Part shown: positions 9,954 through 28,813 of the stretch, in pieces
Position numbering within the stretch: position 1 is the stretch's first letter
Layout of the letters: each line of letters begins with the position of its first letter
NCBI GenBank assembly: GCA_046757165.1
Contig: JBHHXT010000008.1
Location: 1 to 60,977 of the forward strand
Direction of reading: 5' to 3'
DNA: 60,977 bases
From: a bacterium
GTDB taxonomy: Bacteria > Zhuqueibacterota > Zhuqueibacteria > Oceanimicrobiales > Oceanimicrobiaceae
Notes under the pieces: model-generated
What the model saw: the letters and a program-made list of their open reading frames with translations, nothing else
What the model was told of the DNA's origin: nothing
The model's database searches: none
Position numbers and translations under genes: made by a program

Positions 9954-9967
9954 TGTTGAAACATAGC

Positions 9968-10144
9968 GGAAACAGGTAATTCCCGTGATTCGGGAAGGAA
10001 GTCCGGTGAGAGTCCGGCGCTGCCCCGCAACTGTAATCAGCTACGAAAGCCACAATTACCACTGTGACGAGACAACTCTTCTATTTCGGAATGGGAAGGG
10101 TGGCGAGTAGGTTTGAAGCTGTGAGCCAGGAGACCTGCCTGTGC
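9968..10144 (+). promoter_or_regulatory. Cobalamin (AdoCbl) riboswitch
   Basis: ACAGGT..GGGAA..CCGGTGAGAGTCCGG..CTGCCCCGCAACTGTAA..CCACTG..TGGGAAGG..GAGCCAGGAGACCTGCCTGT (B12 box). Confidence 0.95.
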
Positions 10145-10185
10145 GTATCTTCGAGGGAAGGATGCTAAGCATTTCTATGCCAACT

Positions 10186-12532: not shown

Positions 12533-12585
12533 AGCACGTGCCGAGGACACCAAACCATTCATAACCATTCACTTAAGGAGGAACC

Positions 12586-14484: not shown

Positions 14485-14953
14485 GTTGGGGAGGTGCTGA
14501 TTCCGGCGCCCGAAACGCTGGAACCGGCGTTCCTCTTTTGGCGGAAACCCGGAAATTGTTCAGTTTTTAGTCATCAAGGTGTTTAGATACTACACAAATG
14601 GATTGACTCCTGACATGCGGCTAAATGATTCGGGTATTTGTAACCAACCGTGCTGGCAAAAAAGTGGATTATTTTCAGATAGTTTTGCCGGGAAATCGGA
14701 TTTGTTAACATACTTTAACCTTGCATTCACAAATATTTCTTGACTAAGAGGGATTAGTGTTGTATTTTCAAGTTTTAACTGGCCGATTATCGACCACCCC
14801 TGTGTCCAAATCAAAAAAGATGAATTGATGATATCAGGAAACTCCCGCAAAAACCACAATGCTATTGTAAGACATACATGTCGTCTACCCCAACGAATGA
14901 CCATGAAAGAGTAAACTTGAAGTCGCGTTAATTTGATTTCTGAGCACAACACC

Positions 14954-15904
14954 ATGTCGAATAACACCCGATCAAAAAGCATACTTGTCGTCGACGATGT
15001 TCCGGTTAACATACAATTGCTCACCACTTATCTCTCATCGGAAGGCTACCAGGTGATCTCCGCCAGAGATGGCAGCGAAGCGATTGCCAAGGTGAATGAA
15101 AGCAGGCCGGACCTCATTCTTCTGGATGTGATGATGCCGAAGATGAACGGCTTTGAGGTGTGCAAGATTCTGAAGTCCGAGCCGAGAACAAAATACATTC
15201 CAGTGATCCTGGTGACCGCCTTGAACGAGATGCAGGACAAGGTAAAGGGCATGAATTCAGGCGCGGATGACTTTCTCAGCAAACCCTTCAACAAATTGGA
15301 GCTGCTGGTTAGAGTTCGCTCTCTGCTTCGAATCAAGTACCTGCATGACGAGTTGCAAGATAAGGTGCTGGAGTTACAAAAGACCAAGGAGGAATTACGT
15401 CAATTAGCGATTACCGACGGATTGACAGGACTCTACAACTACCGCTATTTCAGGGAACAGTTGCAGCAGGAGATCAATCGCGCTCTGCGTCATGAGTTGA
15501 ACCTCTCGCTTATCATGATAGATATCGACCATTTCAAACACTACAATGACACCAATGGCCATCCAGCCGGAGATTTGCTCTTGCGTGAGATGGGCAAACT
15601 ACTGAAAGACAACATTCGTAGCATCGATGTGGCCTCGAGATACGGCGGTGAAGAGTTTTGTCTTGTGCTCAACGAGACGAACAAGAACGCAGCCAGAATT
15701 GTCGCAGAAAAGATCCGCAAGTTGGTCGAAGAACACACCTTCGAGTTCGAAGAGAAGCAGCCGACGGGCCGCATTACCATCAGCACTGGCGTCGCGACGT
15801 TTCCGGAGGATGGCAAAGAGTTCGAAGTGTTGGTCACCCGGGCGGATGAGCGCTTGTATCTCGCAAAGCAAGCGGGGAGAAACACGATTTTCGCAGATTC
15901 TTGA
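14954..15904 (+). CDS. Response-regulator diguanylate cyclase (REC-GGDEF)
   Basis: LLDVMMP..KPF receiver; TDGLTGLYNYR, RxxD I-site (RSID), GGEEF. Confidence 0.95.
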   Translation: MSNNTRSKSILVVDDVPVNIQLLTTYLSSEGYQVISARDGSEAIAKVNESRPDLILLDVMMPKMNGFEVCKILKSEPRTKYIPVILVTALNEMQDKVKGMNSGADDFLSKPFNKLELLVRVRSLLRIKYLHDELQDKVLELQKTKEELRQLAITDGLTGLYNYRYFREQLQQEINRALRHELNLSLIMIDIDHFKHYNDTNGHPAGDLLLREMGKLLKDNIRSIDVASRYGGEEFCLVLNETNKNAARIVAEKIRKLVEEHTFEFEEKQPTGRITISTGVATFPEDGKEFEVLVTRADERLYLAKQAGRNTIFADS

Positions 15905-15983
15905 CAAGGCACGAGCCGCCACGCACTTGATTCTTCACATTTGGTGCAAGAGAGCCAGCGCAATAACATAACGAGGGGAACTT

Positions 15984-17477
15984 ATGAAGGTACCGTTTTT
16001 CATCCGGAGTTCGCTCTTCAAAAAACTTTTTGTGGTCACCTTTTTTGCGGCTTTCGTCCCGATCGGTCTGTCGTGGATTTATTTCTTTTATCTTTCAGAC
16101 GGTACCATTCCCGGCCAGCACAGCAATTTACTGGTTGTCTACTATGGCTTGTTTGTGTTGGCCTTGTTTTCTGCTGCGCTCGGTGCCTATTCTTTCAGCA
16201 AACACATTACGCGGCCCATCACCCATTTCATCAAGAGCGCGATTGAGATTGCAGGCGGCAATTTTTCTCACCAGGTAAAGGTCGAATCCAGTGATGAAAT
16301 TGGACGATTGGCCAAGATATTCAACTATATGGTCGAAGAGCTGCGCCGTCTTCACGACAGGAACTTGTACGAAATAATCGCCTGGAAAAAGATTTATGAA
16401 ACGATCCTGGAGAATATCGCTGATGGCGTTATTTTGACCAAGCAAGATAACAAGATCATGTTCGTCAACCGTGCAGCCGAGGGGTTTTTTGATTTGGCTG
16501 CCACCAATGTCGTCAATCAGCCGATTGGAAAGACGCTCAGGCATCCGGAGCTTCTTGAAGCCATTCAGGCCACCAGGAATGGCAAGCAGAAACTCGACAA
16601 GATCGAAATCACCGTTGAGTCCTCATCGCGACGAAAGCCGATCATTTTGGAGGCCAAACCTCGATTTATTCCGCTCGAGGGTTCCGACAAGCTCGAAGTG
16701 AAGGAGGCCGTTGCAACGACTTTCACCGACTTGACCAATCTCAAGGAAGTCGACCGCGTCAAGACAGAACTGGTTTGGATGGTTGCTCATGAGCTGCGCT
16801 CTCCGCTCACCTGTATTTCAGGATTCACTGAACTGCTTCTCGACCCTTCAATTACGCGAGAGCAGGCAGAGGAGTATGCTTCAATCATTCTCAAGGAATC
16901 GAGCCGCCTGAATGATTTGATCAACAAATTCCTGGACATTTCCAAGATCGAGGCGGGCAAAAGTCATGTGCGAAAGACCCCGGTGGACATGAAAATGCTG
17001 GTGGAAAAAGTCCTGGATTTCAATTCTCAGTTGGCGGACAAGAAAGAGATTCACGTTCATTTCGAATCGCCGGCGGAAGTATCTCTTCTGGAACTGGACC
17101 GGGATTTGATAGAGCAGGCAATCCTGAACTTGTTTTCGAACGCGGTCAAATATAGCCCGGAAAACGCTCAGGTGACAGTTCGTTTGCGTGAGGATGCTAC
17201 TGTGATCTCTGTGGACATTGAAGATACTGGATATGGAATTTCCGAGAAATCAATACCCCATATCTTTGAAAAGTTCTACCGCGTCACCGACAACGAAGAC
17301 GTTCGGGACACCATGGGCTCCGGCCTGGGGTTGCCGCTGGTTAAGGAGATAGTCGAGATTCACGGCGGCAAGATAAAAGTGAGCAGCGTGTTAGGAAAAG
17401 GCTCGATCTTCACCATTTTCCTGCCCAAAAAGACGGTCGAGACTGCTGAAAGCCACATTGACCGGGTGCTGAATTAG
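15984..17477 (+). CDS. Membrane sensor histidine kinase (2TM-HAMP-PAS-HisKA-HATPase)
   Basis: DEIGRLA..FN HAMP; AHELRSPL; NAVKYS; DTGYGI; GSGLGL. Confidence 0.95.
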   Translation: MKVPFFIRSSLFKKLFVVTFFAAFVPIGLSWIYFFYLSDGTIPGQHSNLLVVYYGLFVLALFSAALGAYSFSKHITRPITHFIKSAIEIAGGNFSHQVKVESSDEIGRLAKIFNYMVEELRRLHDRNLYEIIAWKKIYETILENIADGVILTKQDNKIMFVNRAAEGFFDLAATNVVNQPIGKTLRHPELLEAIQATRNGKQKLDKIEITVESSSRRKPIILEAKPRFIPLEGSDKLEVKEAVATTFTDLTNLKEVDRVKTELVWMVAHELRSPLTCISGFTELLLDPSITREQAEEYASIILKESSRLNDLINKFLDISKIEAGKSHVRKTPVDMKMLVEKVLDFNSQLADKKEIHVHFESPAEVSLLELDRDLIEQAILNLFSNAVKYSPENAQVTVRLREDATVISVDIEDTGYGISEKSIPHIFEKFYRVTDNEDVRDTMGSGLGLPLVKEIVEIHGGKIKVSSVLGKGSIFTIFLPKKTVETAESHIDRVLN

Positions 17478-17491
17478 ATTCGACACGACAA

Positions 17492-18169
17492 ATGAAAAAG
17501 GGCACGGTCCTGCTGATCGATGACAATCAGGATATGATCACGATTGGCGAGCAAATCTTTGTGCCGGCGGGCTACCGATATGTCTCGGCAGAATGCGGAC
17601 GTGATGGGCTGAAGAAGCTGAAAGCGGAAGGGCCTGACGTGGTCATCCTCGACTATCTCTTGCCGGACATAAAGGGAGACGAACTGATTGAGCGGGTTGC
17701 CGGCACGGCTGAATTCGCTGACGCACGCTCCACGCCGTTTGTGATCTTGACCGCCTGGGAGGAAGAAATCGAGAACATGAGCCTTCTTTACAACAAGGGG
17801 TTGGCGGCTTATTTGACCAAACCGTTTGGGCATCGGGAGCTTAGATGCGTGATCGAGAATGTGATTCAGCGAAACCGGGCCAGGCAGCCGGGTCCGAAAT
17901 CGGACACGAGTCCTGCCCGCAAGTCAGGGTTCTGGCAAGAAAGCGAGGTGATTGCGGATCTGGCCAATTGTGTTTTGGGGCTGTCCAGAACTCTGTTGCA
18001 CAGCTTAGATGGCGAACTCAATGAGCAGCAGCGTACGGATTTGGCGGCCATCCACAATTGTGGCAAAAAACTGCTGAGACGGTTCGAGGCTCGCATTACC
18101 GCGACCAAAGCCGGGAAAGTCAGCCAAAAGAGAGAACTGAAAGATCTGGACCACCAGCAAAGTACTTAG
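17492..18169 (+). CDS. Response regulator with a C-terminal His-less DHp-like helical hairpin
   Basis: Intact receiver (ILDYLLPD, LTA, KPF); C-terminal LANCVLGLSRTLL..DGELNEQQRTDL..I..CG..LL. Confidence 0.8.
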   Translation: MKKGTVLLIDDNQDMITIGEQIFVPAGYRYVSAECGRDGLKKLKAEGPDVVILDYLLPDIKGDELIERVAGTAEFADARSTPFVILTAWEEEIENMSLLYNKGLAAYLTKPFGHRELRCVIENVIQRNRARQPGPKSDTSPARKSGFWQESEVIADLANCVLGLSRTLLHSLDGELNEQQRTDLAAIHNCGKKLLRRFEARITATKAGKVSQKRELKDLDHQQST

Positions 18170-18172
18170 TCT

Positions 18173-20071
18173 ATGACCAAAAACAGGACAATCCTATTTG
18201 TCGATGATGATCCGGACATGCTCGAGATCGGGGGCATCATCATCCGGAAAGCCGGGTACAACTACATTTCCACGACCTCCGGTGAAGAAGGATTGAAGCT
18301 GTTGCTGAAAAGAACCCCGGACCTGGTCATTCTCGACTACTATATGCCTGGCATCAACGGCTATGAATTCTTCAAGGAGCTGACGCAAAACCGCAAATAT
18401 GGCGCTGTCAAAGAGACACCGGTCATCATGCTGACCGCCGCTGCTGAAGAAGATGTCGAACGCCGGGAGCTGTTCGAACTTGGGTTGAGCGCGTTTCTGC
18501 TGAAGCCATTCGGGAACAGGGAGCTGATCAACATCATAGACAACGTTTTTATCTTGAATGACTTGAGGCTAAAGAACAAGGAGCTTGCGGAACAGGTCAA
18601 ACGAACAGAGTACAAGTACCAGGATCTGATCGAAAACGCCAGTGATTTGATATTCACACTGGATCCGGAAGCCAATTTTGTCTTCATCAATCGACGGCTC
18701 GCAGGGATTTCCGGCGTAGAAAAGCAGGAGTGGCTGGGCAGGAGTTTTTTTGATCTTATCTGGGAGCAAGACCGTCGGATAGCGCGTGAAAATTTCGACA
18801 AAACGATCAACGGGAAGTCCAGTATCTTTGAGGTGCGACTCTGGCACAAGAACAAGAACTGCATTCACCTCTCCATCAACATCAATCCGATATTCGAAAA
18901 GGGACAGGTGATCGGCTGTGTTGCGATTGCGCGCAACATCACGGAAAAAAAGCAGCTCGAGCAAGAGATCATCGAGCTCAAGAATTTCAACGAAAGCATC
19001 ATTCAGAGTATGGGGTCCGGTCTTATCACCATCGATTTAGACCACAAGGTAACCTCATTCAATAGCAGCGCATGTGAAGTCCTGGGATATGCTGCCAACG
19101 AGATTCTGCACAAAACTCTGGAAGAAGTCTTCCCGAAGGAAGACTGTGAACGCTTGCTCTTGAACATCGATGACCCACACCAGGGGCTGCTCAATCGGGA
19201 GATGCAGCTCACCGGAAAAAACGGCAGGCCTATCTTTGTCGGCTTCTCTGTCACACCGAGATTTGACGTGCAGAATAGACGCGTGGGGACTATCATCTCT
19301 TTCAAGGACATTACGCAGATCAAGCAGATGCAGGTAGAGGTGCAAAGAATGGACCGTCTTGCATCGATGGGGGTGTTGGCCTCTGGGATTGCCCATGAAA
19401 TCCGCAATCCGTTGGCGGGGATCAAGACCATAGCTCAGACGCTGGAGGAGGAAATCGAACCCGATGACCCGCGCCGGGAGTACATCGCCCGCATTGTGCG
19501 ACAGGTCAACCGGATGGATGATTTGCTCAAGACGATTTTTTCGTATGCCAAACCGCGACAGCCAAAGAGAAAATACCATCGCTTCCAGGAGATCATTCAA
19601 GAGGTCTATGCGCTGCTCGAAAACCGGATGCGCGCGCAGTCCGTTCACTATGCGGAATCATATCATTCAGAACTCCCCCTGCTCTATGTTGATTTCTACC
19701 AAATACAGCAGGTGTTTTTGAATCTGTTCTTGAATGCCCTGGACGCCATGTCGGATGGCGGCGAGCTGAAATTGCAAGCATCCCCAAGAATCACGACGCT
19801 CAACCGTGTCGACCGACGCGGCCGGCCCTTTCCCATCCAGAAGAAAAGCGCACTTTACGCAGAGGTGCTGGTGTCCGATACGGGTGTGGGCATCAACCCG
19901 GACGCAGTTCAGTCTATTTTCAATCCCTTTTTTACCACAAAGCCGCAGGGGTCGGGTTTGGGACTTTCCATCTGCTACCGGATTATGAGCGAACATGACG
20001 GCGAAATCCAGGTCGAGAGTGAATTGAACCAGGGCACAACGTTTAGATTGTTGTTACCAACAGAGGAATAG
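18173..20071 (+). CDS. Cytoplasmic hybrid histidine kinase (REC-PAS-PAS-HisKA-HATPase), NtrB-like core
   Basis: LDYYMPG; two PAS domains ending ARNITE and FKDITQ; IAHEIRNPL; NALDAM; FFTTK..GSGLGL. Confidence 0.95.
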   Translation: MTKNRTILFVDDDPDMLEIGGIIIRKAGYNYISTTSGEEGLKLLLKRTPDLVILDYYMPGINGYEFFKELTQNRKYGAVKETPVIMLTAAAEEDVERRELFELGLSAFLLKPFGNRELINIIDNVFILNDLRLKNKELAEQVKRTEYKYQDLIENASDLIFTLDPEANFVFINRRLAGISGVEKQEWLGRSFFDLIWEQDRRIARENFDKTINGKSSIFEVRLWHKNKNCIHLSININPIFEKGQVIGCVAIARNITEKKQLEQEIIELKNFNESIIQSMGSGLITIDLDHKVTSFNSSACEVLGYAANEILHKTLEEVFPKEDCERLLLNIDDPHQGLLNREMQLTGKNGRPIFVGFSVTPRFDVQNRRVGTIISFKDITQIKQMQVEVQRMDRLASMGVLASGIAHEIRNPLAGIKTIAQTLEEEIEPDDPRREYIARIVRQVNRMDDLLKTIFSYAKPRQPKRKYHRFQEIIQEVYALLENRMRAQSVHYAESYHSELPLLYVDFYQIQQVFLNLFLNALDAMSDGGELKLQASPRITTLNRVDRRGRPFPIQKKSALYAEVLVSDTGVGINPDAVQSIFNPFFTTKPQGSGLGLSICYRIMSEHDGEIQVESELNQGTTFRLLLPTEE

Positions 20072-20077
20072 CCAAGT

Positions 20078-21448
20078 ATGTCGAAAGCGAACATTCTGAT
20101 CATCGAGGATAATGAGGATTTGTGCCAAACGCTGGCGGATGTCTTAAGGAAAGAAGGCAATAAAGTTAGGACGGCTTACACCGGTGAGCATGGGTTGTCC
20201 ATTCTCGAAAAAGACATCATCGATTTGGTATTGCTGGATATCAAGCTGCCAGACATGAATGGCCTCTCGATTCTGGCAGGGGTCAAGGACAAAGACCCTG
20301 ACATCCTGGTGATCATGATTACGGCTACGACCGATGCTCGCCCCGCCGTGGACGCCATGAAGAAGGGGGCCTATGACTATCTGATGAAGCCGTTCGAACT
20401 CGACCAGCTCAAATTAGTGGTCGCCAAAGCTCTGGAAACGCATCACCTCAAAAAAGAAGTCTCTCGCTTGAAAAGCCAACACAAAGACCAGTTTCCAGAC
20501 AACGACCTGTTTGGCGATTCCAAACCGATGCGCGAACTCAAGAAGCTGATCAAAATTGTCGCTGGTACGCCGAAGACTTCTGTTTTGATCCAGGGCGAAA
20601 GTGGAACAGGCAAAGAACTGGTTGCGAATGCCGTCCACAATTGGAGCTCCAGGTCGGACAAGCCGCTCATCAAAATCAACTGTAGCGCGATCCCGGAGAA
20701 CCTGCTGGAAAGCGAGTTGTTTGGCCATGAAAGGGGCGCCTTTACAGACGCCAAGAACCTCAAGAAAGGCATCTTTGAGATGGCGAACAACGGTACGATT
20801 TTTCTCGACGAGATTTCGAGCATGCAGATGTCCATCCAGCCCAAATTCTTGCGCGTGCTGGAAACGCAGTCATTCCGTAGAATAGGCGGCACATCGGACA
20901 TTCAAATCGATGTTCGCATCATTGCTGCAACCAACCGAAACCTGGAAGATTGTGTGGAACAACAAGCCTTTCGAGAGGATCTGTATTACCGGCTCAAGGT
21001 CATGGTATTGAATATCCCGACTCTGCGTGAACGCACTGAGGACGTCATCCCGCTAGCCCTGCTGTTTATCGGAAGAAACAACAAGGAGTTCGGAAAAGAA
21101 ATCAAAGGCATTGCGCGTGATGCGGCAGAAAAAATGGTGAAGTACCGCTGGCCGGGCAATGTCCGGGAGCTGAAGAACGTCATCGAAAGAGCGGTGATCC
21201 TTTGCAATGAGCACGAGCTGCAATCCGATCACCTACCGTTGGAACTGCAGCACGGTATTTCCAAACTGGGCACCTCGAATGAGTTCGCTTCCCTCACAGG
21301 AGACGCTGATTCTCTTGAAGAAATGGAAAGACGCCACATCTTGAATGTGTTAAAGAAATATAACGGCAACAAATCCAAAACCGCAAGGATGCTCAATATC
21401 TCGAGATCCACGTTGCGGGAAAAGATGAAAAACTATGGCATTGCGTAA
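20078..21448 (+). CDS. sigma54-dependent transcriptional activator (REC-AAA+-Fis HTH; NtrC/AtoC family)
   Basis: GESGTGKE, ESELFGHERGAFTDA, FLDEI, FREDLYYRL, WPGNVREL, HTH. Confidence 0.97.
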   Translation: MSKANILIIEDNEDLCQTLADVLRKEGNKVRTAYTGEHGLSILEKDIIDLVLLDIKLPDMNGLSILAGVKDKDPDILVIMITATTDARPAVDAMKKGAYDYLMKPFELDQLKLVVAKALETHHLKKEVSRLKSQHKDQFPDNDLFGDSKPMRELKKLIKIVAGTPKTSVLIQGESGTGKELVANAVHNWSSRSDKPLIKINCSAIPENLLESELFGHERGAFTDAKNLKKGIFEMANNGTIFLDEISSMQMSIQPKFLRVLETQSFRRIGGTSDIQIDVRIIAATNRNLEDCVEQQAFREDLYYRLKVMVLNIPTLRERTEDVIPLALLFIGRNNKEFGKEIKGIARDAAEKMVKYRWPGNVRELKNVIERAVILCNEHELQSDHLPLELQHGISKLGTSNEFASLTGDADSLEEMERRHILNVLKKYNGNKSKTARMLNISRSTLREKMKNYGIA

Positions 21449-21648
21449 TCACAAACTGTACGAAAAGTGACCATCTGTATAGAAACTACTCCATAAATTC
21501 TACCTACCTCGATCCTCAATCCCCTATCTGCCCTGTCATTTGTTGAGGAACGCCCTTGCGTTTAAGGTTTTCGGTTCAGGTGACGAAATTCACTTTTGTG
21601 AGCGGAAGCCAAAGGCTTCTCTGCTGATTCCTGTCCCCTATTTGTATT

Positions 21649-21664
21649 TGGTATAAGTTTTGCT
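21649..21664 (+). promoter_or_regulatory. Predicted sigma54 (-24/-12) promoter of the downstream operon
   Basis: TGGTATAAGTTTTGCT with exact GG-N10-GC spacing, about 40 nt upstream of ATG 21707 (AGGAG RBS). Confidence 0.75.
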
Positions 21665-21706
21665 CAAGGCAGGCGTGCGACTAGCTCGACGTTAAGGAGA
21701 CCGTGT

Positions 21707-22375
21707 ATGGAAAAGCCGAAGAAACTTCTGATAGCCGATGACGAGGAGGACATATCCTGGGCAGTTTCGAAGAGCCTGAAAAAGTCAAACCTCAATATTG
21801 ATATTACGTGTGTCAACAACGGGGACGCTGCTCTAGAGCTGCTACGTCGCCAACCTTTCGATTTGGTCGTCTCCGACATTCGAATGCCCGGGTGTGATGG
21901 CCTAAGATTGATTCGAGAGATTCGGAAACACCACCCGGCAACCAAGATCATTATCATGACAGCCTATGGCTCTCAGGAGGTCATGGACCGTGCCGATGCC
22001 CTGGGCAGCTTTTTTTACCTTGAAAAGCCATTCGACATCGGGTATATGAAGCAGCTCATCATGGAGGCTTTGGACCTCAGGCAGCAAGGCTTCAAGGGCT
22101 CAATCGACCGTGCCGGCATTCGCGAGCTGGTACAGTTGAACTGCTCAAACAAGAGAAATTCTTCATTGTTCATCTCCAGACAAGAGGAAAATGGTGCGAT
22201 ATACTTCAAGAATGGGGACATTGTCCATGCCGAGTGTGGCCAGCTAAATGGAGAAAGAGCTTTTTTCAGTATCTTGAATTGGAACCGAGGGACCTTCAAG
22301 ATCGACTACAATCCGTCGTCAACCAAGAGAACCATTTCTCGCAGCTGGAAAACACTGCTCCACCAATGCGCTTAG
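21707..22375 (+). CDS. Response regulator with DUF4388 (PatA_N-like) domain
   Basis: Receiver (SDIRMPG, MTAYG, KPF); GFKGSI...LVQL..GAIYFKNGDIVHA..GE.AF..IL.W..G.F. Confidence 0.88.
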   Translation: MEKPKKLLIADDEEDISWAVSKSLKKSNLNIDITCVNNGDAALELLRRQPFDLVVSDIRMPGCDGLRLIREIRKHHPATKIIIMTAYGSQEVMDRADALGSFFYLEKPFDIGYMKQLIMEALDLRQQGFKGSIDRAGIRELVQLNCSNKRNSSLFISRQEENGAIYFKNGDIVHAECGQLNGERAFFSILNWNRGTFKIDYNPSSTKRTISRSWKTLLHQCA

Positions 22376-22409
22376 GTGAAAGAAGCGAAGAAGGATTTAG
22401 CAGCTACAT

Positions 22410-23219
22410 ATGGGAGAAGTCATCGCCATTGCCAGCCAGAAGGGGGGAGTCGGAAAAACAACAACAGCGGTCAACCTGGGGGCAAGTCTTGCGACCCTGG
22501 GGTATCACGTGCTGCTCATAGACATCGACCCGCAGGGAAGCGTGGCCTCGAGTTTCGGCTTTACCCAGTATGACATCAAAGCTGGCATTCTGGATGTCTT
22601 CTTGAGCGATGAGCCAATCACAAATGCGATTCATCCCACCGGTCAACAGAATTTCGATTTGATTCCCACCAATCTTTGGTCGGACGACAATGAGAGGCGA
22701 CAACTGGTTGGGGTTGCCTCGAAGGTCCGATTGAAAGACAAACTCACCTCCATCAAGCAGAGCTACGACTTTCTGCTCATCGACTGTCCCCCTTCGCTCG
22801 GTAATTTGACCTTCAATGCGTTGATTGCGGCAGATTCCCTGATCATTCCAATTCAATGTGAATACTACGCCCTCAAGGCCCTGGGACGATTCCTCAAACT
22901 CACCCGAATTATCAAGAAAGAGAACAACCCACGACTTCGGTACCGTGGATTTCTGCTAACCATGGTCGACCCTAGAAACAGACTGACTAAAATTGTCGTC
23001 GAAAAAGTCCGATATACTCTGAAAGGCCTTGTTTTTGAGACCATGATACCGAGAAACATACGATTAGCTGAAGTGCCGTACTACGGGCAGCCCGTCATAA
23101 CCTTCGACAAAAAGTGCAAAGGGGCCGCTGGCTACATGAATCTGGCCCGTGAAATCTTAGGAGAAGGCGGCAATGTTGTTGGTCTTGCTGCCGATAAACA
23201 AGAAGTGAGTGTGGTTTAA
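22410..23219 (+). CDS. ParA/Soj family ATPase (orphan, no parB)
   Basis: KGGVGKTT, DIDPQG, IDCPPSLG, PIQCEYYAL, IPRNIRLAE.P..G. Confidence 0.93.
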   Translation: MGEVIAIASQKGGVGKTTTAVNLGASLATLGYHVLLIDIDPQGSVASSFGFTQYDIKAGILDVFLSDEPITNAIHPTGQQNFDLIPTNLWSDDNERRQLVGVASKVRLKDKLTSIKQSYDFLLIDCPPSLGNLTFNALIAADSLIIPIQCEYYALKALGRFLKLTRIIKKENNPRLRYRGFLLTMVDPRNRLTKIVVEKVRYTLKGLVFETMIPRNIRLAEVPYYGQPVITFDKKCKGAAGYMNLAREILGEGGNVVGLAADKQEVSVV

Positions 23220-23232
23220 AAGGAGTTTGACC

Positions 23233-23640
23233 TTGGCCAGGATACTGATTGTTGAGGATGACTGCAACACTCGCGTCGGGTTGTCTGAAATCCTAAGTGA
23301 AGAAGGGTACGATATTGTTGCGGTCGAAACGGCAGAAGCAGCACTCGAGAGAATCGAGACTGATATCGACATCCTGTTGTCAGATCTTCGACTTCCCTGC
23401 AAATCAGGACTCGAGCTCGTCAAAGAATTCAAATCTCTTCGTCCCGCTCTAATTGCAATTATCATGACAGCATACAGTACCCCGGAGTGTTACATTGAAG
23501 GAAAAGACATAGGAGTAGAAGCATGGTTAACTAAGCCTTTGAACGTTGAGAACCTACTTTCCCTGTTAAAAAAAACGCAATCATCGGTGACATGTCACAA
23601 GGAGCGACAAATTCCACAGCCTGAAACCGTTCTTGAATAA
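23233..23640 (+). CDS. Single-domain response regulator (CheY-like)
   Basis: ILIVEDD, LSDLRLP, MTAY, TKPL; TTG start after AGGAG. Confidence 0.88.
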   Translation: MARILIVEDDCNTRVGLSEILSEEGYDIVAVETAEAALERIETDIDILLSDLRLPCKSGLELVKEFKSLRPALIAIIMTAYSTPECYIEGKDIGVEAWLTKPLNVENLLSLLKKTQSSVTCHKERQIPQPETVLE

Positions 23641-23679
23641 CAATCGGCACCACCCCTTCTGAAAGGAGGCTTGCACCAC

Positions 23680-24369
23680 GTGTTCGTAGCAATCGCATCA
23701 AACGTTCTCAAGAAGCTTACCTTTATTTCCATGATGGTTCTGATGTTCATTTCAACGTTGAGTTTCACAACCAATATTAGAAAGATAGAAGAGCAGAATG
23801 AGAGCCTCACTGAGATCGCTGACTATGTGAAGGCTTTCCAGAGCGAGTTGAAAGTAGACAGCGTCAGAACCGCAGCACTCAAGAAAATCACTAGAATCAT
23901 GTGCCAGTACAATCAGGACTTGAGCGCCAACGAAAAACATTCTATCGCCAATGAAATCTATAACATGAGCGTCAAGTATGACAACCTCGACGTGGATTTG
24001 ATTTGTGCAACCATCACCCATGAAAGTGCTCGCACATGGCAGCCGGATGTCACTTCGCCTGCCGGTGCCATGGGCTTGATGCAGGTCATGCCGCATACGG
24101 CCTCATTTCTCAGCAAACATGAAGGGATCGAATGGACAAGTCCGGAAACCGTGCTCTACAACCCGATCTACAACATACGCATGGGGTGTCGTTATCTGTC
24201 CATGCTCATCGAACTCTACAATGTTGATGGTGGCCTGGCAGCATACAATGGGGGTGAAAGGCGTGCGGCACAATGGCTGGCAAGTGGCCGTAACGATGAG
24301 GTTCTCTTTGAAGAAACTCGTGGGTACATTCCGGCCGTGCTCAAACTTTACGACACATTCAAAGATTAG
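23680..24369 (+). CDS. Membrane-anchored lytic transglycosylase (SLT domain)
   Basis: N-terminal TM helix; ITHESA catalytic Glu; GAMGLMQVMP; LAAYNGG; ETRGY; start at GTG 23680 or TTG 23671. Confidence 0.92.
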   Translation: MFVAIASNVLKKLTFISMMVLMFISTLSFTTNIRKIEEQNESLTEIADYVKAFQSELKVDSVRTAALKKITRIMCQYNQDLSANEKHSIANEIYNMSVKYDNLDVDLICATITHESARTWQPDVTSPAGAMGLMQVMPHTASFLSKHEGIEWTSPETVLYNPIYNIRMGCRYLSMLIELYNVDGGLAAYNGGERRAAQWLASGRNDEVLFEETRGYIPAVLKLYDTFKD

Positions 24370-24383
24370 GCAATGGAGTTCAA

Positions 24384-26417
24384 ATGGACGCAAAACCATT
24401 GTCGCAACAAGAGTTTTATCGCGAGCTGGTCAACCGGTTCTTCCACACAAACAGTTATTTCTATCACTGCATCAAGAATGAACTCGACGCTGTCTTGCGT
24501 GAGCTTCAGGGCGCAAACAACCACGAATATTTGCTCCTGGGCAACTTGTTCGACAATCTTGTCTCAGCGCACGATACCGTGGCCGAGCTTGGCCGACTCA
24601 CGGCCATAAAGGGATTCTCCGAGTTTGGCGAGAAGCTCACACAGGGCATCCAGTTCTTACATGATATCGACCTCGATTCTGAAAGGATGAAGATTGAAAT
24701 CGAGAGCCTTGCGCACTCGATGTTCAATAGCGTCTTGCTTGCTTTTCAGGATAAGGACTCCCTGCAACAATTGAGGAACATGTTGGGCGCGGATTTCAGA
24801 GACGAACCTGCGTCGGACCTCCAGGAGGACCGGGACCGGCCCGACGAGGAGTTTCAGTTGTCCGCCGGCTTGATGGCTGAGGCGCAGGAATACGGATCAG
24901 ACCAACCTCTCTTCGAAGACCGGGCGGGTGTGTTTTCAGATGAAGAGAGTAGCCGGGTAAACGAAATAGAGGAAACAAGCTTTGACCCGATATCGGAGGA
25001 TGACCCCACGGAGGACAACGAAAATGGCCAAGATGAGCGGTTTCGAGATTTGGCGCTCGAAAACGATGACCCGGCGCTCACAAATGAAGTTGGAAGCAAC
25101 GACCTCTTTTCAGACGACCACATAGACCTGGACGTAGAGCTGTTGCTAGAAGACGACTTGAAGGTGTACGACGATATTGGGATGCCACCTGAACCCATGC
25201 CTGCACTTGAAGATACGAGTCCTCAATTCCCCGAACGGTGTGAACCTGAAGCAGAACACACGTCCGAGCCGCCGGTGAAACATGAAACCGATGACGCAGC
25301 CCCGGCACCTCGGAATTCTGAGCCCGATAGAAAACCTCGGCTTCATGAGCCCGAGGTTGTGGTCAAGTACTTTTGTCAGGAGGTGCGCGACCATCTCGCT
25401 GAATTGGACGAAGTGCTGGCGAAACTGAAATCAGAGCCGACGCAGGCTGATTTGTGGGAGAAGAGTGACGCCATCATGGATTCAATTGTTATGACTTCCG
25501 TCATTTACGGTTTTGAAGCCTTCGAGCAAATTACCGCCAAAGCAAAAAAGTTGATCGCACGAACTCGCAGCGATGAGGAGAGCGGCTATGACCGGGCGGT
25601 CGTCATCGTGACAAAGACTCGGCAAGTGCTGAATTACTTTCTTGCTAACAACCCGGAGAGAATCGAGTCAAAGTTGGTCAAGCAGTTTACCACAAAGCTC
25701 ACCACGCCACTGGTTCCATCCGAACCCACAGGCAGGGCTTTGCCTGCAATCCATGCCCGGGAGGGCCGGATTCCTGGGACAGAAAGAGACGGAGAGACCG
25801 AGACAGGAAACAAGAGAACTGAGGTCCAGGGGCTTAAGCTTCCAGGAGAAGACGATGCTGAAGTGATGAACTTGATCGCTGAAATCACCAGGGAGAAAGA
25901 GGAAAAGAATTCAGCCAGTAAAAGAGAATCCAAAGATAATCGCCTTGGCACACGACCGGGAGAGACCCTCGAGGACAATGAATTTGTAGACAAGAGACCC
26001 TCTCCACCGGTCAATACCTCGAAATCGCAAGCACATATGACGATCTACCGGCGTGGAGCTGAGGTATATTTGAACGCCATGGAGGAGGCCCTGATTGCTC
26101 TGGACGCCAATGGCCAAAACAAGACGGCGTTGGATGATCTTGAAGTGGCTGCCAACGCCCTCTACGGTCTCACATTGAAACTCAATCTGGAGGAGATCGG
26201 TAGATTCCCGGACTTGCTCTTGACTTTGCTCAGGGACGTGCTGGCTACAAACTACTCTTTTTCAAGCCATGAGCTGGCGCTGATGAAGCATGTCACTCAA
26301 TATTTTCGCAATCTGCAGAGTGTTGAACAGACAAAAGAGCGCCAATTCATGCAAATGCTGACATCGCTCAAAGACCTTGACGCGAGAGTCAAGAACTATG
26401 TGCGTAGTAGCCAATGA
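24384..26417 (+). CDS. Hypothetical scaffold: helical N-domain, long acidic linkers, two His-less Hpt (CheA P1)-like domains
   Basis: F.QEVRDHLAELDEVL.KL..EP...IMDSIVMTSVIYGF and Y...AE.YL.AMEEAL.AL...AANALYGL..KL. Confidence 0.7.
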   Translation: MDAKPLSQQEFYRELVNRFFHTNSYFYHCIKNELDAVLRELQGANNHEYLLLGNLFDNLVSAHDTVAELGRLTAIKGFSEFGEKLTQGIQFLHDIDLDSERMKIEIESLAHSMFNSVLLAFQDKDSLQQLRNMLGADFRDEPASDLQEDRDRPDEEFQLSAGLMAEAQEYGSDQPLFEDRAGVFSDEESSRVNEIEETSFDPISEDDPTEDNENGQDERFRDLALENDDPALTNEVGSNDLFSDDHIDLDVELLLEDDLKVYDDIGMPPEPMPALEDTSPQFPERCEPEAEHTSEPPVKHETDDAAPAPRNSEPDRKPRLHEPEVVVKYFCQEVRDHLAELDEVLAKLKSEPTQADLWEKSDAIMDSIVMTSVIYGFEAFEQITAKAKKLIARTRSDEESGYDRAVVIVTKTRQVLNYFLANNPERIESKLVKQFTTKLTTPLVPSEPTGRALPAIHAREGRIPGTERDGETETGNKRTEVQGLKLPGEDDAEVMNLIAEITREKEEKNSASKRESKDNRLGTRPGETLEDNEFVDKRPSPPVNTSKSQAHMTIYRRGAEVYLNAMEEALIALDANGQNKTALDDLEVAANALYGLTLKLNLEEIGRFPDLLLTLLRDVLATNYSFSSHELALMKHVTQYFRNLQSVEQTKERQFMQMLTSLKDLDARVKNYVRSSQ

Positions 26418-26438
26418 AGCACAGTCTGCCTTGGATTT

Positions 26439-28163
26439 ATGAATCATCAACATAGGTATGGGCTCATGTCGAATTATCAGTCAGAGACGGACAAAGAACT
26501 TGAAGAGGTGCTCGGGTCTCACAAGACCATCATCAAGATAGTTGGAACCGGGGGAGCCGGCAACAACACGGTCACGAGATTGCTCGAAGTTGGAATTCAG
26601 GGCGTTGACGTCATTGCCATCAATACAGACGCACAAGATTTGCTCCATGCCAGGTCAGACCACAAGATCTTGATCGGCAAGAATATCACCAATGGCCTGG
26701 GCGCGGGTAGCGATCCTTCCAGAGGGGAGGAATCGGCCAGAGAAAGTCTGGACGATATCGAGAGCAAGCTGGCCGGGAGTGACATGGTCTTCATCACGTG
26801 TGGCCTGGGTGGAGGAACCGGCACCGGCTCAGCGCCGATTATCGCAAATATTGCTCAGAAAATAGGAGCCCTCACTGTCGCTGTCGTCACCCTGCCTTTT
26901 GGCGATGAAGGCATCATTCGTTGGGAAAATGCGCGTAAGGGTCTGCAGCAATTGCAGAACAACGTGGATACGGTCATCGTTGTTCAAAACGATAAGCTGC
27001 TTGACCTCGTGCCTGACATGCCGTTGAACGCCGCCTTCAGATTTGCAGACGAGATTCTGGTCAACGCGGTCAAAGGCATGACTGAACTGGTCACGGAGAA
27101 GGGCCTCGTCAACCTGGATTTTGCAGACCTTCGTACCATCATGCAAGGCGGCGGGCTGGCCATGATCGGCCTGGGTGAAAGTGAGACTGAAATGAATGCC
27201 GAGGAAGCGGCAGAAAAAGCCCTGGAAAACCCGCTCCTCGATGTTGATGTCACTGGCGCCAAGAGTGCTTTGATCAACATTTCAGGCGGGCAGGAGTTAT
27301 CGCTGAAAGCAGCTAAGACTGTCATGCGGATTGTCGCCAAGAAGCTGGACCCATCTGCCAGAATCATCTGGGGTGCAAGGCTCGATGAGGCAATGGGCAG
27401 CAGTCTGCGCGTCATGCTCATCGTCACATGTCTACAAACATCACGACGGTCGGCGTCTGAAGTTGAAATGGTTCTTAACACCTCACCCGAACCGACTGTC
27501 ACGCCGCTCTCGCTGGCCGAACCCACGCCGCGGCAGAGCGAAAAAACAGCCGCTCCATCTGAGGCCAACAAGAAAAGGGCCGGTAAGATTTTTTCGGACA
27601 TCTTCATCGAAGAGTCCGACAGCGAATTGAATCTACTGGAGGAGTCGATAAGAAACTTGAGTCTCGGCAGGCCTGCTGAAAATGAAAAACACTTCAACGA
27701 AATAAAACAAGCCTGCTCAGCTCTTTACAGTTCCTCCGAACTCTTCGGATACGACAGAATTTCCGATTTTGTTGAGGTGATCGAAGATGTGACGGAATAT
27801 GCCGCAAATGGTGAATTCGAACTGTCCAAGAGCTTCCTGGATCTCTATCGTCCAATTCCTTCCACGCTCCGGTCGATGATGACAGATGACGAGGTAGCAT
27901 TCGAGCAAGCAGAGGAGATCAAGCAGAAGTTTGGCAATATCCTGGAATTGGTGACGAAACCCGACCCTGAGGAAGCAGACACCGCACAGAAAAGCGCACA
28001 AAGTTCTGCCAGCAGGCCCGCGTCCGACACACAGAATCAAGGAATAGATGAGAAGCAAAACGACGGCGATACGAAAGAGAATGTGCACGCCAGCGCGGGC
28101 AAAACGAAATCGGAATTTTCGAGTGTTCGTGAAGCTGTAAGGTATTTTGACAAACTCTTTTAG
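26439..28163 (+). CDS. ftsZ: FtsZ-family GTPase (archaeal FtsZ1-like) fused to a C-terminal Hpt-like domain
   Basis: [31 protein letters not shown]7 loop NLDFAD; about 240-aa extension with IFIEE..EL.LLEE..LFGY. Confidence 0.93.
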
Positions 28164-28185
28164 AAGCCCGCGACAGGTCTGATGC

Positions 28186-28752
28186 ATGTTAACCGAGAGT
28201 GACAACTACTATTTCTCAGAGTTCATGCGGTCTCTGCATCGAATGAGCAGCATATTGACCAAACTCAAGCCGGAAGAGGATAACCAGGCACACCTCGCTG
28301 CCGCATGTGAAGCCGCTCATCGCATAAGGGATCTGGCCATGGTGCACGGCTATGCCGGGGTCGAAAACGTTGCCAACAAATTCTGTCAACAGTTCGGCCA
28401 ATTCACGCACGGAAAGAAGGAGCTGGACGCTCAATTGCTTGAGAAAGTGGAGTCGGGTGTGATGGCCATTAGACGTCTGGCAGAGATAGAAGATTCGGTG
28501 GAAGATCAGATGATAGTCGAGCATCTGAACTGGAGAGCCGAACCCCAAAGCACGCGAGAGATATGTCAAAGCGCCCAGTGGTTTGACAATCGCCAGCTAG
28601 AGCTGTTCCATCACGATGCGAACATTCCTGCGCTCGAGAGCAGACTCGCCATAGACTTCGAGATTCAAGAGTGTGATGCCATTCTGACCGGATCTGAAAA
28701 GCAAATGGCATGGGAATCAAAAAACATGATGTTAGACTTGTTTGACAAGTGA
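28186..28752 (+). CDS. Hpt-like domain protein (His retained)
   Basis: YF.EF..SL..M..L.KL..AAHRIRDLAMVHGY..V..VA. Confidence 0.65.
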   Translation: MLTESDNYYFSEFMRSLHRMSSILTKLKPEEDNQAHLAAACEAAHRIRDLAMVHGYAGVENVANKFCQQFGQFTHGKKELDAQLLEKVESGVMAIRRLAEIEDSVEDQMIVEHLNWRAEPQSTREICQSAQWFDNRQLELFHHDANIPALESRLAIDFEIQECDAILTGSEKQMAWESKNMMLDLFDK

Positions 28753-28780
28753 CCGTTTGATACTCGATCTTGTTTTGGCA

Positions 28781-28813
28781 GGCTGACCTCTTCTGCATGA
28801 GGTTGGCTTTTTT
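28781..28813 (+). terminator. Intrinsic terminator closing the FtsZ-Hpt operon
   Basis: GGCTGACCTC/GAGGTTGGCT stem plus T-run. Confidence 0.7.

Follow-up and report, generated by a model that had tools for sequence, protein, structure and literature searches.

The Caulobacter-type developmental relay includes PleD, CckA, DivK, MipZ and PopZ, and sigma54 control together with an SLT transglycosylase is typical of envelope-machine programmes. In Myxococcus, PomX, PomY and PomZ offer a precedent for ParA-based positioning of FtsZ (PMC10307791, in the sections available). A survey of the FtsZ family states, in its accessible part, that no notable transfer of ftsZ was detected between archaea and bacteria (PMC9871819). 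Membrane binding through an FtsZ's own helix has precedents as well (10.1101/2023.08.29.555414 and PMC12583498, both in excerpt). The paper naming the phylum of the present host is based on metagenome-assembled genomes, and the portion of its text available carries no passage on morphology (PMC11683472).

Here we describe a locus in which an archaeal-type FtsZ is encoded with a phosphorelay, an orphan ParA, a lytic transglycosylase and scaffolds. An earlier note on this DNA had claimed twelve co-oriented genes, and an ORF check of the window (the whole stretch analysed, 60,977 nucleotides or 61 kb) found all twelve in one orientation at the expected coordinates, with domains identified by Pfam. 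The features are as follows.

14780..14796, no strand assigned: palindromic enhancer-like site ahead of the input operon (scored with a matrix built from other loci)
14954..15904, + strand: g1, REC-GGDEF diguanylate cyclase (Pfam)
15984..17477, + strand: g2, membrane HAMP-PAS histidine kinase (HAMP-PAS-HisKA-HATPase; Pfam)
17492..18169, + strand: g3, REC with a short, weakly DHp-like helical tail, a variable gene (Pfam)
18173..20071, + strand: g4, REC-PAS-PAS histidine kinase (REC-PAS-PAS-HisKA-HATPase; Pfam)
20078..21448, + strand: g5, REC-AAA-HTH sigma54 activator (Pfam)
21457..21473, no strand assigned: enhancer-like palindrome, some 190 nt before the promoter (from a motif search of 48 loci and from held-out loci)
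21649..21664, + strand: sigma54 -24/-12 promoter
21707..22375, + strand: g6, REC-DUF4388 (Pfam)
22410..23219, + strand: g7, orphan Soj/ParA ATPase (AAA_31; Pfam and motifs)
23209..23640, + strand: g8, single-domain REC (Pfam)
23671..24369, + strand: g9, SLT lytic transglycosylase with an N-terminal membrane anchor (Pfam)
24384..26417, + strand: g10, scaffold of 677 aa (AF2 model; no Pfam family)
26439..28163, + strand: g11, archaeal-type FtsZ, linker, His-less P1/Hpt domain and C-terminal amphipathic helix
28186..28752, + strand: g12, pseudo-P1 protein with an F[DE]IxE motif, a short form in the window
28780..28809, + strand: intrinsic terminator-like hairpin and T run

Intergenic distances range from -11 to 79 nt, with the exception of 258 nt between the activator g5 and g6. 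The ORFs scanned around the operon include no dcw, parB, che or flagellar gene, in agreement with the earlier note. A genome search for FtsZ-Hpt homologues, which that note had proposed, matched the operon FtsZ in 97/167 phylum genomes, and the gene order is conserved between families, being common to many genomes of several classes with housekeeping genes flanking. Since the closest relatives of the FtsZ core outside the phylum are archaeal, archaeal contamination of the metagenome bin, or a chance string of genes, had to be weighed. However, host contamination is 0.02%, and within a single contig the FtsZ locus has bacterial two-component genes on one side and guaB on the other. We regard an artefact as refuted, with next to no probability left to it, because the synteny is shared among many genomes. 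The host, probably of KSB1 type, has a separate dcw-linked ftsZ on contig C15, and the operon ftsZ is not its sole copy. A second FtsZ match was found in 90 of the 97 carriers; among four inspected of the seven exceptions, in three ftsA lies at the end of a contig or is truncated by it, and the fourth also lacks ftsA although a congener has it.

The g11 product belongs to the FtsZ family (404.8 bits against TIGR00065, cut-off 295.2), its FtsZ fold is confident, and codon 10 (26466), the start used in protein databases, is probably the true one. Pfam resolves it as Tubulin-FtsZ_C-Hpt, with Hpt at 26.1 bits (cut-off 24.6); the P1/Hpt domain covers residues 375-506 and the amphipathic helix 563-573. 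The GGGTG[TS]G motif is present in 58/60 operon FtsZs and the T7 NxDxxD motif in 60/60. Motifs are likewise intact in the ParA and SLT of the operon, so that the identities first assigned to all three proteins stand. Placement of the operon FtsZ on the archaeal side received support of 100/99 and 100/100 in trees of 53 and 60 rows, respectively. Nesting within the FtsZ1 clade was supported at 96/91 in the 53-row tree, whereas the 60-row tree gives no such placement, and a position outside FtsZ1+FtsZ2 is compatible with the data (AU p=0.228). The best solved relatives are archaeal FtsZ1 structures (389 and 351 bits vs 276 for the best bacterial chain). The phylum thus carries an archaeal-type FtsZ beside its own, which points to either a single kept transfer or a very old surviving paralogue. 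The archaeal type of this FtsZ had been missed in the earlier reading.

The tail of the operon FtsZ is equally distinct. The C-terminal FtsA-binding peptide, present in the dcw FtsZs of the phylum, is absent by eye from the 60 operon FtsZs, and the GID (SepF-binding) tail motif of the archaeal reference FtsZs is replaced; no SepF was found in the host. The terminal helix fits its pattern in 30/60 rows, and a strict pattern recovers the linker motif in 19/60 FtsZ tails, the window's FtsZ not among them. We rejected the operon FtsZ as the canonical divisome FtsZ: it is not in dcw behind ftsA, has no FtsA peptide and does not descend from the host FtsZ.

An alternative is that g11 conditionally modulates the normal division ring, joining or blocking the native Z-ring and delaying division as Agrobacterium FtsZ1 does. 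A non-dcw second FtsZ beside a canonical one fits this proposal, and division-inhibiting FtsZ paralogues have been described (PMC13732431, in the part available). However, the described paralogues are duplicates of the host FtsZ, an origin rejected here (AU p=0.0006), and the g11 core shares 41.7% identity with the host FtsZ vs 55-61% with 12 archaeal FtsZ1 rows. An inhibitor, moreover, would need no dedicated ParA, scaffolds or SLT, and we consider this role improbable.

The domain fused to FtsZ recurs in the neighbouring genes. The FtsZ tail, g10 and g12 are paralogous (hhalign 97.5, 99.5 and 97.3%) and together hold four pseudo-P1 domains in three genes. The AF2 model of g10 consists of a unique helical domain (8-134), an acidic disordered linker, a pseudo-P1 domain (324-440), an LPGEDD helix and a second pseudo-P1 domain (545-676). 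The modelled g10 pseudo-P1 matches CheA3 P1 with VIA Z 16.5 (rmsd 2.5, 124 aligned) and T. maritima P1 with VIA Z 13.7 (rmsd 2.9, 104 aligned). The P1 helical-bundle fold is thus assigned by structure comparison for g10, and by Pfam, profile and Atlas matches for the FtsZ tail and g12, where the Pfam match of g12 to Hpt is weak (E 0.002). Long forms of g12 have an additional pseudo-P1 domain and often a basic amphipathic end, which the window's g12 is without. Matches to g10 occur in 65/167 genomes, and g12 adjoins FtsZ in 19/20 metagenome loci. These proteins had been labelled Hpt-like, and the Hpt/CheA-P1 fold holds, but the phosphotransfer histidine does not: it is found in 0/60 FtsZ tails, in 1/36 and 0/36 sequences for the two g10 domains and in 1/28 for g12, the window copy only. 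Neither the missing histidine nor the paralogy of the Hpt domains across three genes had been remarked on previously.

The remaining output genes retain their characteristic residues. In g6, matched in 103/167 genomes and without DUF4388 in several families, the DDEED..W motif in helix 1 of the REC domain is invariant and Asp57 is present in 49/49. The aspartate of g8, which is adjacent in 15/60 loci, is conserved in 16/16. The ParA g7 keeps Walker A in 34/34 and both Arg motifs, which we take to bind DNA as in Soj. With these residues and no adjoining parB it is an orphan, as PomXYZ-type positioning would have; the host has a separate ParA-ParB pair on contig C62. The transglycosylase g9, adjacent in 35/60 loci, has the ES motif in 33/36, GLMQ and AYNxG in 36/36 and a hydrophobic N-terminus in 35/36. 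Its family is expanded in the host, with three close paralogues at unrelated genome positions. No membrane-integral partner or wall synthase is present among the operon genes.

Sigma54 control and an SLT enzyme would also suit a system that helps to build a machine spanning the envelope (flagellum, pilus or secretion system), in which ParA and FtsZ mark the site and SLT opens the wall. In NCBIfam, g9 scores best against a flagellar lytic transglycosylase but stays far under that cut-off (72 vs 234 bits), and the host itself has flagellins and CheW. Across the phylum genomes, however, neither flagellin nor CheW tracks the operon: flagellin occurs in 0/2 f11 and 0/14 f12 genomes despite a near-complete operon, and in 7/19 f7 genomes, which are without the operon FtsZ. 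On these flagellin and CheW profiles we regard this reading as very improbable.

The input half appears equipped for phosphorelay signaling. The GG[DE]EF motif and RxxD I-site of g1 are present in 39/39 and its phospho-Asp in 42/43. In g2, which has two N-terminal hydrophobic peaks, His269 is found in 44/44, and His408 of g4 in 47/47, with g4 matches in 128/167 genomes. The activator g5 has GAFT[DG]A in 45/47 and its phospho-Asp in 47/47, and rpoN was found in the host genome. The variable g3 is adjacent in 5/60 FtsZ loci and is found in f4, f5 and f9 input loci. Its former designation, REC-pseudoDHp, is sound for REC; the pseudoDHp part is weakly supported, with HisKA at E 0.19 in one of five sequences scanned.

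The -24/-12 promoter reported before the output half is the single exact match of the 61-kb window and lies inside the 258-nt gap. With one mismatch allowed, the 5 matches vs 6.5 expected show that the single-window count by itself is not significant. We accept the promoter because the box is conserved across loci: it stands upstream of g6 in 47/48 loci, compared with 0-5 of 23-60 for eight other genes and 42/4800 shuffles. Among held-out loci, 14/15 have the promoter and 12/15 an enhancer score of at least 15; the window's palindrome scores 11.0 with its own copy left out of the matrix. Where the halves are apart, both elements travel with the output half, as separated output halves score at least 15 for the enhancer in 6/6 loci and separated input halves have neither element in 14/14. 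The conserved enhancer is absent from the earlier reading. With box, enhancer, GAFTGA-type activator and rpoN all present, the output half is, judged by its sequence, a sigma54-dependent operon. The site at 14780..14796 is the second-best in the 6.1-Mb genome, and such sites precede gene 1 in 9/41 loci vs 0.7% of shuffles, making autoregulation of the input operon possible. The terminator said to close the operon is present as an 11-bp hairpin (-15.9 kcal/mol) with a T run, although the total of terminator-like sites does not exceed the chance expectation (17 vs 15.7).

The twelve genes need not occur together. The input half is found in more genomes than the output half (128 vs 97 of 167), and family f9 and genus g32 have it with no second FtsZ; independence of the halves, raised beforehand as an objection, thus applies to the input half, while separated output halves keep promoter and enhancer. 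Some f14/f15 genomes (91-100% complete) keep input half, promoter and REC with a single FtsZ only, and in f15 FtsZ is located elsewhere or missing. In f20-f26, ParA, SLT, g10 and g12 are jointly missing in 16/16 loci, leaving REC and FtsZ; this FtsZ is without the terminal helix but intact, and the g6 REC is the one gene directly adjoining it. Family f4 has REC, SLT and a degenerate FtsZ with the T7 motif lost.

These reduced loci bear on a further proposal, a positioned signaling hub in which FtsZ filaments and pseudo-P1 scaffolds gather receivers at one site to drain or localise the phosphorelay, with SLT an accessory passenger and no envelope remodelling. The most conserved core is kinase, activator, promoter and REC, and the f20-f26 loci, the catalytically degenerate FtsZ of f4, the number of pseudo-P1 domains and the invariant g6 helix-1 surface all agree with such a hub. 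Nevertheless, nearly all 60 FtsZ sequences keep GTPase motifs, SLT is frequently adjacent and stays with REC and FtsZ in f4, and receptor and CheW are both missing from the operon. We judge a hub unlikely, while giving it real weight.

On balance we lean towards an accessory FtsZ structure, inducible and self-anchored, that ParA positions and that remodels the wall locally. Kinases g2 and g4 would phosphorylate g5, with g1 as a parallel c-di-GMP output; the motifs are seen, and this flow is our reading of them. The enhancer palindrome would be bound, presumably by g5, and the promoter opened, and REC, ParA, SLT, scaffolds and FtsZ would be made on one transcript, a well supported step. The archaeal-type FtsZ, to judge from its motifs, would form its own GTP-driven filament and, having lost the tails for FtsA (bacterial) and SepF (archaeal), would use the grafted tail instead. 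In FtsZ, g10 and g12, the P1 domains without His would serve as docking modules and not phosphocarriers, binding one another, short linker motifs and the co-expressed receiver g6, and phosphorylation state may gate assembly through P1-receiver docking. Membrane attachment would come from amphipathic ends of FtsZ or g12. If PomXYZ is a guide, the orphan ParA would place the scaffold cluster via the nucleoid, and the anchored SLT would cut the wall there, so that the cell could conditionally change shape or divide in a special way. In favour of this reading we count the separate dcw ftsZ, the kept FtsZ, ParA and SLT motifs, the replaced FtsZ tails, the promoter and enhancer that stay with the output half, the paralogous P1 folds without His, and the joint loss in f20-f26 of ParA, SLT, g10, g12 and the terminal helix of FtsZ. 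Several observations count against an accessory cytoskeleton: the separable parts, the wider input half, the expanded SLT family, the patchy terminal helix and linker motif, and the lack of a membrane-integral partner or wall synthase.

The system looks to be an inducible cytoskeleton of a kind not yet described, one that stands apart from vegetative division; its role in division or differentiation is one that we infer. A fuller evolutionary scenario is more tentative, and we hold it as somewhat doubtful: the phylum ancestor would have gained an archaeal FtsZ, swapped its tail for a His-less CheA-P1 domain of its own scaffolds and added a dedicated phosphorelay, giving a second self-anchoring, ParA-positioned cytoskeleton gated directly by receiver binding. 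In this walled bacterium it would drive division or differentiation in a conditional way and without FtsA. The protein itself naturally joins a tubulin-family GTPase to a two-component docking fold, which would give a direct route from phosphorylation to filament assembly. The parts are small, mostly soluble and co-encoded, and thus polymerisation, membrane or partner binding and ParA positioning are testable in vitro or in a laboratory host, with natural reduced versions (REC and FtsZ; REC, SLT and degenerate FtsZ) as ready comparisons. The model predicts that a widespread uncultured lineage has an inducible programme of cell shape or development that has yet to be seen.

The earlier note knew of no described system with this gene set, and our literature search likewise found no description of one. 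Archaeal FtsZ1 (M. jannaschii FtsZ1 1FSZ/1W58; OdinFtsZ1 9V7V) shares the N-terminal extra helix, GTP-binding and T7 motifs, whereas the operon FtsZ has a bacterial host, no GID tail, no SepF and a His-less P1 fusion. Archaeal FtsZ1 genes lie among translation genes, according to the available part of PMC9871819, and the operon FtsZ in a sigma54 operon. Second bacterial FtsZs such as Hyphomicrobiales FtsZ1 are similarly non-dcw, non-essential-looking and beside a canonical FtsZ, but in the accessible sections they are duplicates, mostly truncated, while the operon FtsZ is of archaeal type, is longer and comes with an operon and a regulator of its own (PMC13732431). The CheA P1/Hpt domains (3KYJ, 1I5N, 1TQG) have the five-helix P1 fold in common with the operon domains, and one host CheA has a tandem P1-linker-P1 layout resembling the arrangement here; the operon domains differ in having no phospho-His, kinase, CheW or receptor, and one is fused to FtsZ. 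PomXYZ likewise joins an orphan ParA and two large scaffolds to an FtsZ needing placement, a likeness drawn by description and not sequence; the disordered linkers of g10 are long. The target of Pom, however, is the essential dcw FtsZ, and the scaffolds here are CheA-P1 folds. The Caulobacter relay also brings REC-GGDEF, PAS kinases and single receivers into one programme with a ParA-family ATPase and an acidic scaffold, although none of its families is matched here above the NCBIfam cut-off (PleD 378 of 474, CckA 188 of 1000), and the output of the operon instead runs through sigma54 and a dedicated FtsZ.

The locus is a real and conserved system, and we lean slightly towards reading it as an inducible accessory cytoskeleton. 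The earlier note had described twelve co-oriented genes from 14954 to 28752; all twelve open reading frames were found there in one orientation, and they carry the domains it had named. The input half comprises a REC-GGDEF protein (g1), a membrane kinase (g2), a REC protein (g3), a REC-PAS-PAS kinase (g4) and a sigma54 activator (g5). The output half comprises a REC-DUF4388 protein (g6), ParA (g7), a REC protein (g8), an SLT transglycosylase (g9), a pseudo-P1 scaffold (g10), an FtsZ-Hpt protein (g11, the operon FtsZ) and a pseudo-P1 protein (g12). The genes, motifs, folds, promoter, enhancer and co-inheritance of the system are matters of observation. Intergenic gaps are short throughout except for 258 nt behind g5, and this gap holds the sigma54 box already noted there, the sole exact match in the window. 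The hairpin and T run reported behind g12 were also recovered; scans for sigma70 promoters and terminators gave results at chance level.

Features of the window, forward-strand coordinates:
1666-2583, tRNA cluster of five genes
9957-10156, cobalamin riboswitch
10313-14484, TonB-dependent receptor and beta-propeller protein, the latter with a FlgD/Por-type C-terminal domain
14954-28752, operon genes g1 to g12
21649-21664, sigma54 box

The riboswitch and the two genes behind it, just upstream of the operon, are likely a B12 uptake unit. Housekeeping genes flank the locus, with gcvP on its upstream side and guaB or thrS on the other, so it is chromosomal and probably inherited; contamination as its source was rejected. 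Its nearest named relative, labelled candidate division KSB1, has identical gene order and an FtsZ of 69% identity, and another relative is labelled Calditrichaceae; the host is accordingly taken to be of KSB1/Zhuqueibacterota affiliation. The host genome is 99.98% complete and contains rpoN, flagellins, CheW and a ParA-ParB pair separate from the operon; SepF had no match in it. The note had asked for a separate dcw-linked ftsZ, and a second host ftsZ does end a dcw cluster on contig C15 (dcw genes identified by eye from translations), which rules out the operon FtsZ as the only copy in the genome. The idea that the operon modulates the native ring (compare the available text of PMC13732431) fits less well than an accessory cytoskeleton, and we consider it improbable.

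The operon FtsZ was matched in 97 of 167 phylum genomes (E<=1e-90; tally including the unpublished G162), in the host's class and in other classes, and 90 of the 97 carriers have at least two FtsZ matches. Four of the seven single-FtsZ exceptions were checked: in three, ftsA lies at a contig end or is truncated by it, and the fourth is without ftsA too, a congener having ftsA. Of the 97 loci, 60 were fetched, picked to cover many families and by the length of their contigs. Families f1, f2 and f11 to f14 share the order g1-g2-g4-g5-g6-ParA-SLT-g10-FtsZ-g12 apart from single losses, and of 20 metagenome loci retrieved through g12, 19 have FtsZ directly upstream of it. Gene order is conserved across families, and the modularity of the set speaks against a strict twelve-gene unit. 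Independent occurrence of the halves, which the note had named as grounds for refutation, was seen for the input half, which occurs in f9 beside a single FtsZ; in f5, f17 and f18 the output half lies at a distance from the input half. Of 167 genomes, 128 have a match to kinase g4 (among them 13 of the 14 genomes of f9), 103 one to g6 and 65 one to g10; the g4 and g6 tallies include the unpublished G158, and that of g4 also G162. At five loci (L114, L115, L121, L123 and L172) an additional (REC)-PAS histidine kinase separates g3 from g4, and g2 is often at least 700 aa in f17, f18 and f21 to f26.

Reduction goes further in several families. REC and FtsZ stand alone behind the promoter at 16/16 loci of f20 to f26, the f4 operon consists of REC, SLT and an FtsZ whose GTPase motifs are eroded, the FtsZ of f15 is either on its own at another site or absent, and two f14 genomes retain remnants that include no FtsZ. 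The main rival reading, a positioned signalling hub that does no wall work, fits these reduced operons better than an accessory cytoskeleton does; overall we hold it to be rather unlikely.

Several FtsZ variants were recorded. At the f4 loci L263, L264 and L265, FtsZ (510-520 aa) has lost the T7 motif, matches Tubulin at E 5e-22, has no FtsZ_C hit and still lies behind REC and SLT with the promoter present; it is a possible pseudo-GTPase. The lone operon-type FtsZs of f15 (L142 to L146) are 719-782 aa long with a very long linker, away from REC and promoter. Third FtsZ copies occur in G026 (L261) and G020 (L267); the former, behind an ftsA, could stem from contamination or represent a second dcw fragment. 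Locus L171 (G132), excluded from the alignments, has a single TAG between core and tail of its operon FtsZ, either a sequencing error or a natural split.

Flagellin was found in 0/16 genomes of f11 and f12, families with a near-complete operon, and in 7/19 genomes of f7, which has no operon FtsZ; CheW is likewise uncoupled from the operon. Because kin are not independent, these cases serve as counter-examples and not as a statistical test, and a flagellar or chemotaxis programme was rejected on this uncoupling. A role as assembly helper for a machine also fits less well than an accessory cytoskeleton, and seems to us slightly less probable still than modulation of the native ring.

Judged by its sequence, the operon FtsZ is of archaeal type. 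Among solved structures, M. jannaschii FtsZ1 matches g11 best (389 bits; the top bacterial one reaches 276), and the best 80 genome loci among the matches listed comprise 77 labelled archaeal and three bacterial full-length copies. Among the best 150 cluster representatives, which carry no taxonomy, 15 have a P1 tail; 13 of these were placed in a tree, all inside the operon clade. Our 53-row tree held 14 of 60 operon FtsZs, 16 FtsZ1-type, 9 FtsZ2-type and 14 bacterial rows; the archaeal rows are mostly best hits to the query, a biased sample, and the FtsZ1/FtsZ2 labels are our own, anchored on two annotated haloarchaeal genes. CetZ was left out for its long branches; in a first tree, two CetZ rows both fell inside the operon clade on very long branches. 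In the 53-row tree the operon FtsZs come out as one clade (100/100), joined to FtsZ1 (96/91) and split from bacteria (100/99). A 60-row tree with more divergent archaea retained the bacterial split (100/100), and in it the clade took no firmly supported place among the archaea. Duplication of the phylum's own ftsZ was rejected (AU p=0.0006), and a position outside FtsZ1+FtsZ2 was not (p=0.228). Transfer from archaea is likely on these trees. The main text of PMC9871819 reports no notable ftsZ transfer between archaea and bacteria, that of PMC8178401 separates archaeal and bacterial FtsZ clearly, and neither mentions KSB1.

The GTP-binding motif is intact in 58/60 operon FtsZs and the T7 motif in 60/60. 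In the g11 model the FtsZ core is followed by a disordered linker, a bundle of helices at 375-506 and a terminal helix at 563-573, whose hydrophobic moment is 0.91 in the window's protein; 30/60 rows end in a similar way, and 0/16 of those from f20 to f26. Foldseek with full-length g11 returned FtsZ chains only. Four unnamed archaeal-side FtsZs (P0036, P0046, P0040 and P0048) have long tails ending in basic, hydrophobic stretches, by which they may anchor themselves; P0036 and P0046 came out as weakly placed sisters of the operon clade, and this only in a FastTree run. Word-indexed protein searches gave 12 proteins each with no useful names, and cluster look-ups named few relatives.

Scaffold g10 has three folded helical domains, the N-terminal one at 8-134, separated by acidic disordered linkers. 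A wide structural search covered the other two, and both could be superposed on CheA P1 (Z 16.5, rmsd 2.5, 124 aligned; Z 13.7, rmsd 2.9, 104 aligned); Foldseek with the g10 model found nothing at E<=0.001. By profile comparison the g10 C-terminal half, the long form of g12 and the tail of FtsZ are paralogous (99.5, 97.5 and 97.3%). The layout is domain A, then a linker that carries a short motif (LPGE in 33/38 g10; F[DE]IxE in 27/28 g12 and 19/60 FtsZ tails), then domain B. The FtsZ thus appears to have swapped the tail it once had for this family's linker and B domain. In an alignment with three CheA P1 domains of the host, the phospho-His was found in 0/60 FtsZ tails, 1/36 and 0/36 of the g10 domains and 1/28 g12 proteins (second g12 domain left out), the single case in g12 being the window's copy; true phosphotransfer by the Hpt domains was rejected on this near-constant absence. 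About 15/28 g12 proteins end, by eye, in a basic amphipathic stretch that the window's short-form g12 lacks. Predicted as a complex, the FtsZ pseudo-P1 and the g6 receiver scored 0.00 in two runs for which controls were not folded. In one host CheA (C16:24155-26548) two P1 domains that keep the His stand in tandem with acidic linkers, an arrangement shared with the pseudo-P1 scaffolds; a CheA of this type is a plausible ancestor for them.

ParA g7 keeps Walker A (34/34) and both Arg motifs, which we take to be the DNA contacts of Soj. SLT g9 retains its three motifs as well as a hydrophobic segment at the N-terminus. Close paralogues of g9 lie at three unrelated places of the host genome (C3:55350-56057, behind another sigma54 activator; C44:11818-12552; C32:33329-34000), and together they form a lineage-expanded family of anchored SLTs.

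A -24/-12 box precedes g6 in 47/48 loci; ahead of eight other genes it occurs in 0-5 of 23-60, and in shuffles in 42/4800. A motif search of 48 regions gave a 17-nt palindrome, mostly 125-215 nt upstream; its count of 42/48 is circular, the same regions having served for discovery, and it was therefore tested on other loci. Among 15 new g6 loci, 14 have the box and 12 a palindrome score of at least 15. Separated output loci, excluded from the matrix but part of the discovery set, have the palindrome in 6/6 (-183 to -188), and behind the activator of separated input loci box and palindrome are both absent (14/14). Thus the link from activator to output travels with the output genes and would act in trans, g5 presumably being the protein that binds the palindrome. 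The palindrome also lies upstream of g1 in 9/41 loci versus 0.7% of shuffles, the window having its copy at 14780, a site that ranks second in the whole genome; this suggests feedback on the input operon. A genome-wide regulon search (sigma54 box plus enhancer) gave weak candidates at most. Further high-scoring enhancer-like sites outside long ORFs (C161:7988, C97:319, C278:3934 and C278:3989), one upstream of a malate dehydrogenase-like gene, are possible further targets of the activator. A TTAAG...TGACGAA motif at about 21560-21590, 70-100 nt upstream of the box and seen by eye in f1 loci only, is perhaps a site for a bending protein or co-regulator. The phospho-His is kept in g2 (44/44) and g4 (47/47), and the phospho-Asp in g1, g5, g6 and g8, with more variation at the receiver Asp of g4 (kept in 32/47).

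As an accessory cytoskeleton, the system would run from the relay through the activator to one transcript of the output genes. The FtsZ filament would be anchored by its own terminal helix or that of g12, and held and gated through the His-less P1 domains and receiver g6; ParA would place the structure and SLT would cut the wall locally. All interactions, the localisation and the biological event of such a cytoskeleton are what we infer by analogy.

The individual parts all have known relatives, and the set falls outside the canonical divisome, true Hpt relays and flagellar programmes. Our literature search, with most subscription journals outside its scope, found no described system in which an archaeal-type FtsZ is combined with inactive phosphotransfer domains, an orphan ParA and a sigma54 relay. 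The available text of PMC11683472, which describes the phylum from metagenome-assembled genomes, gave no hit for morphology or flagella. For positioning, PomXYZ offers an analogy (available text of PMC10307791). For self-anchoring, an analogy is found in the FtsZs with their own membrane helix described in the accessible parts of 10.1101/2023.08.29.555414 and PMC12583498, the helix being N-terminal in the latter.
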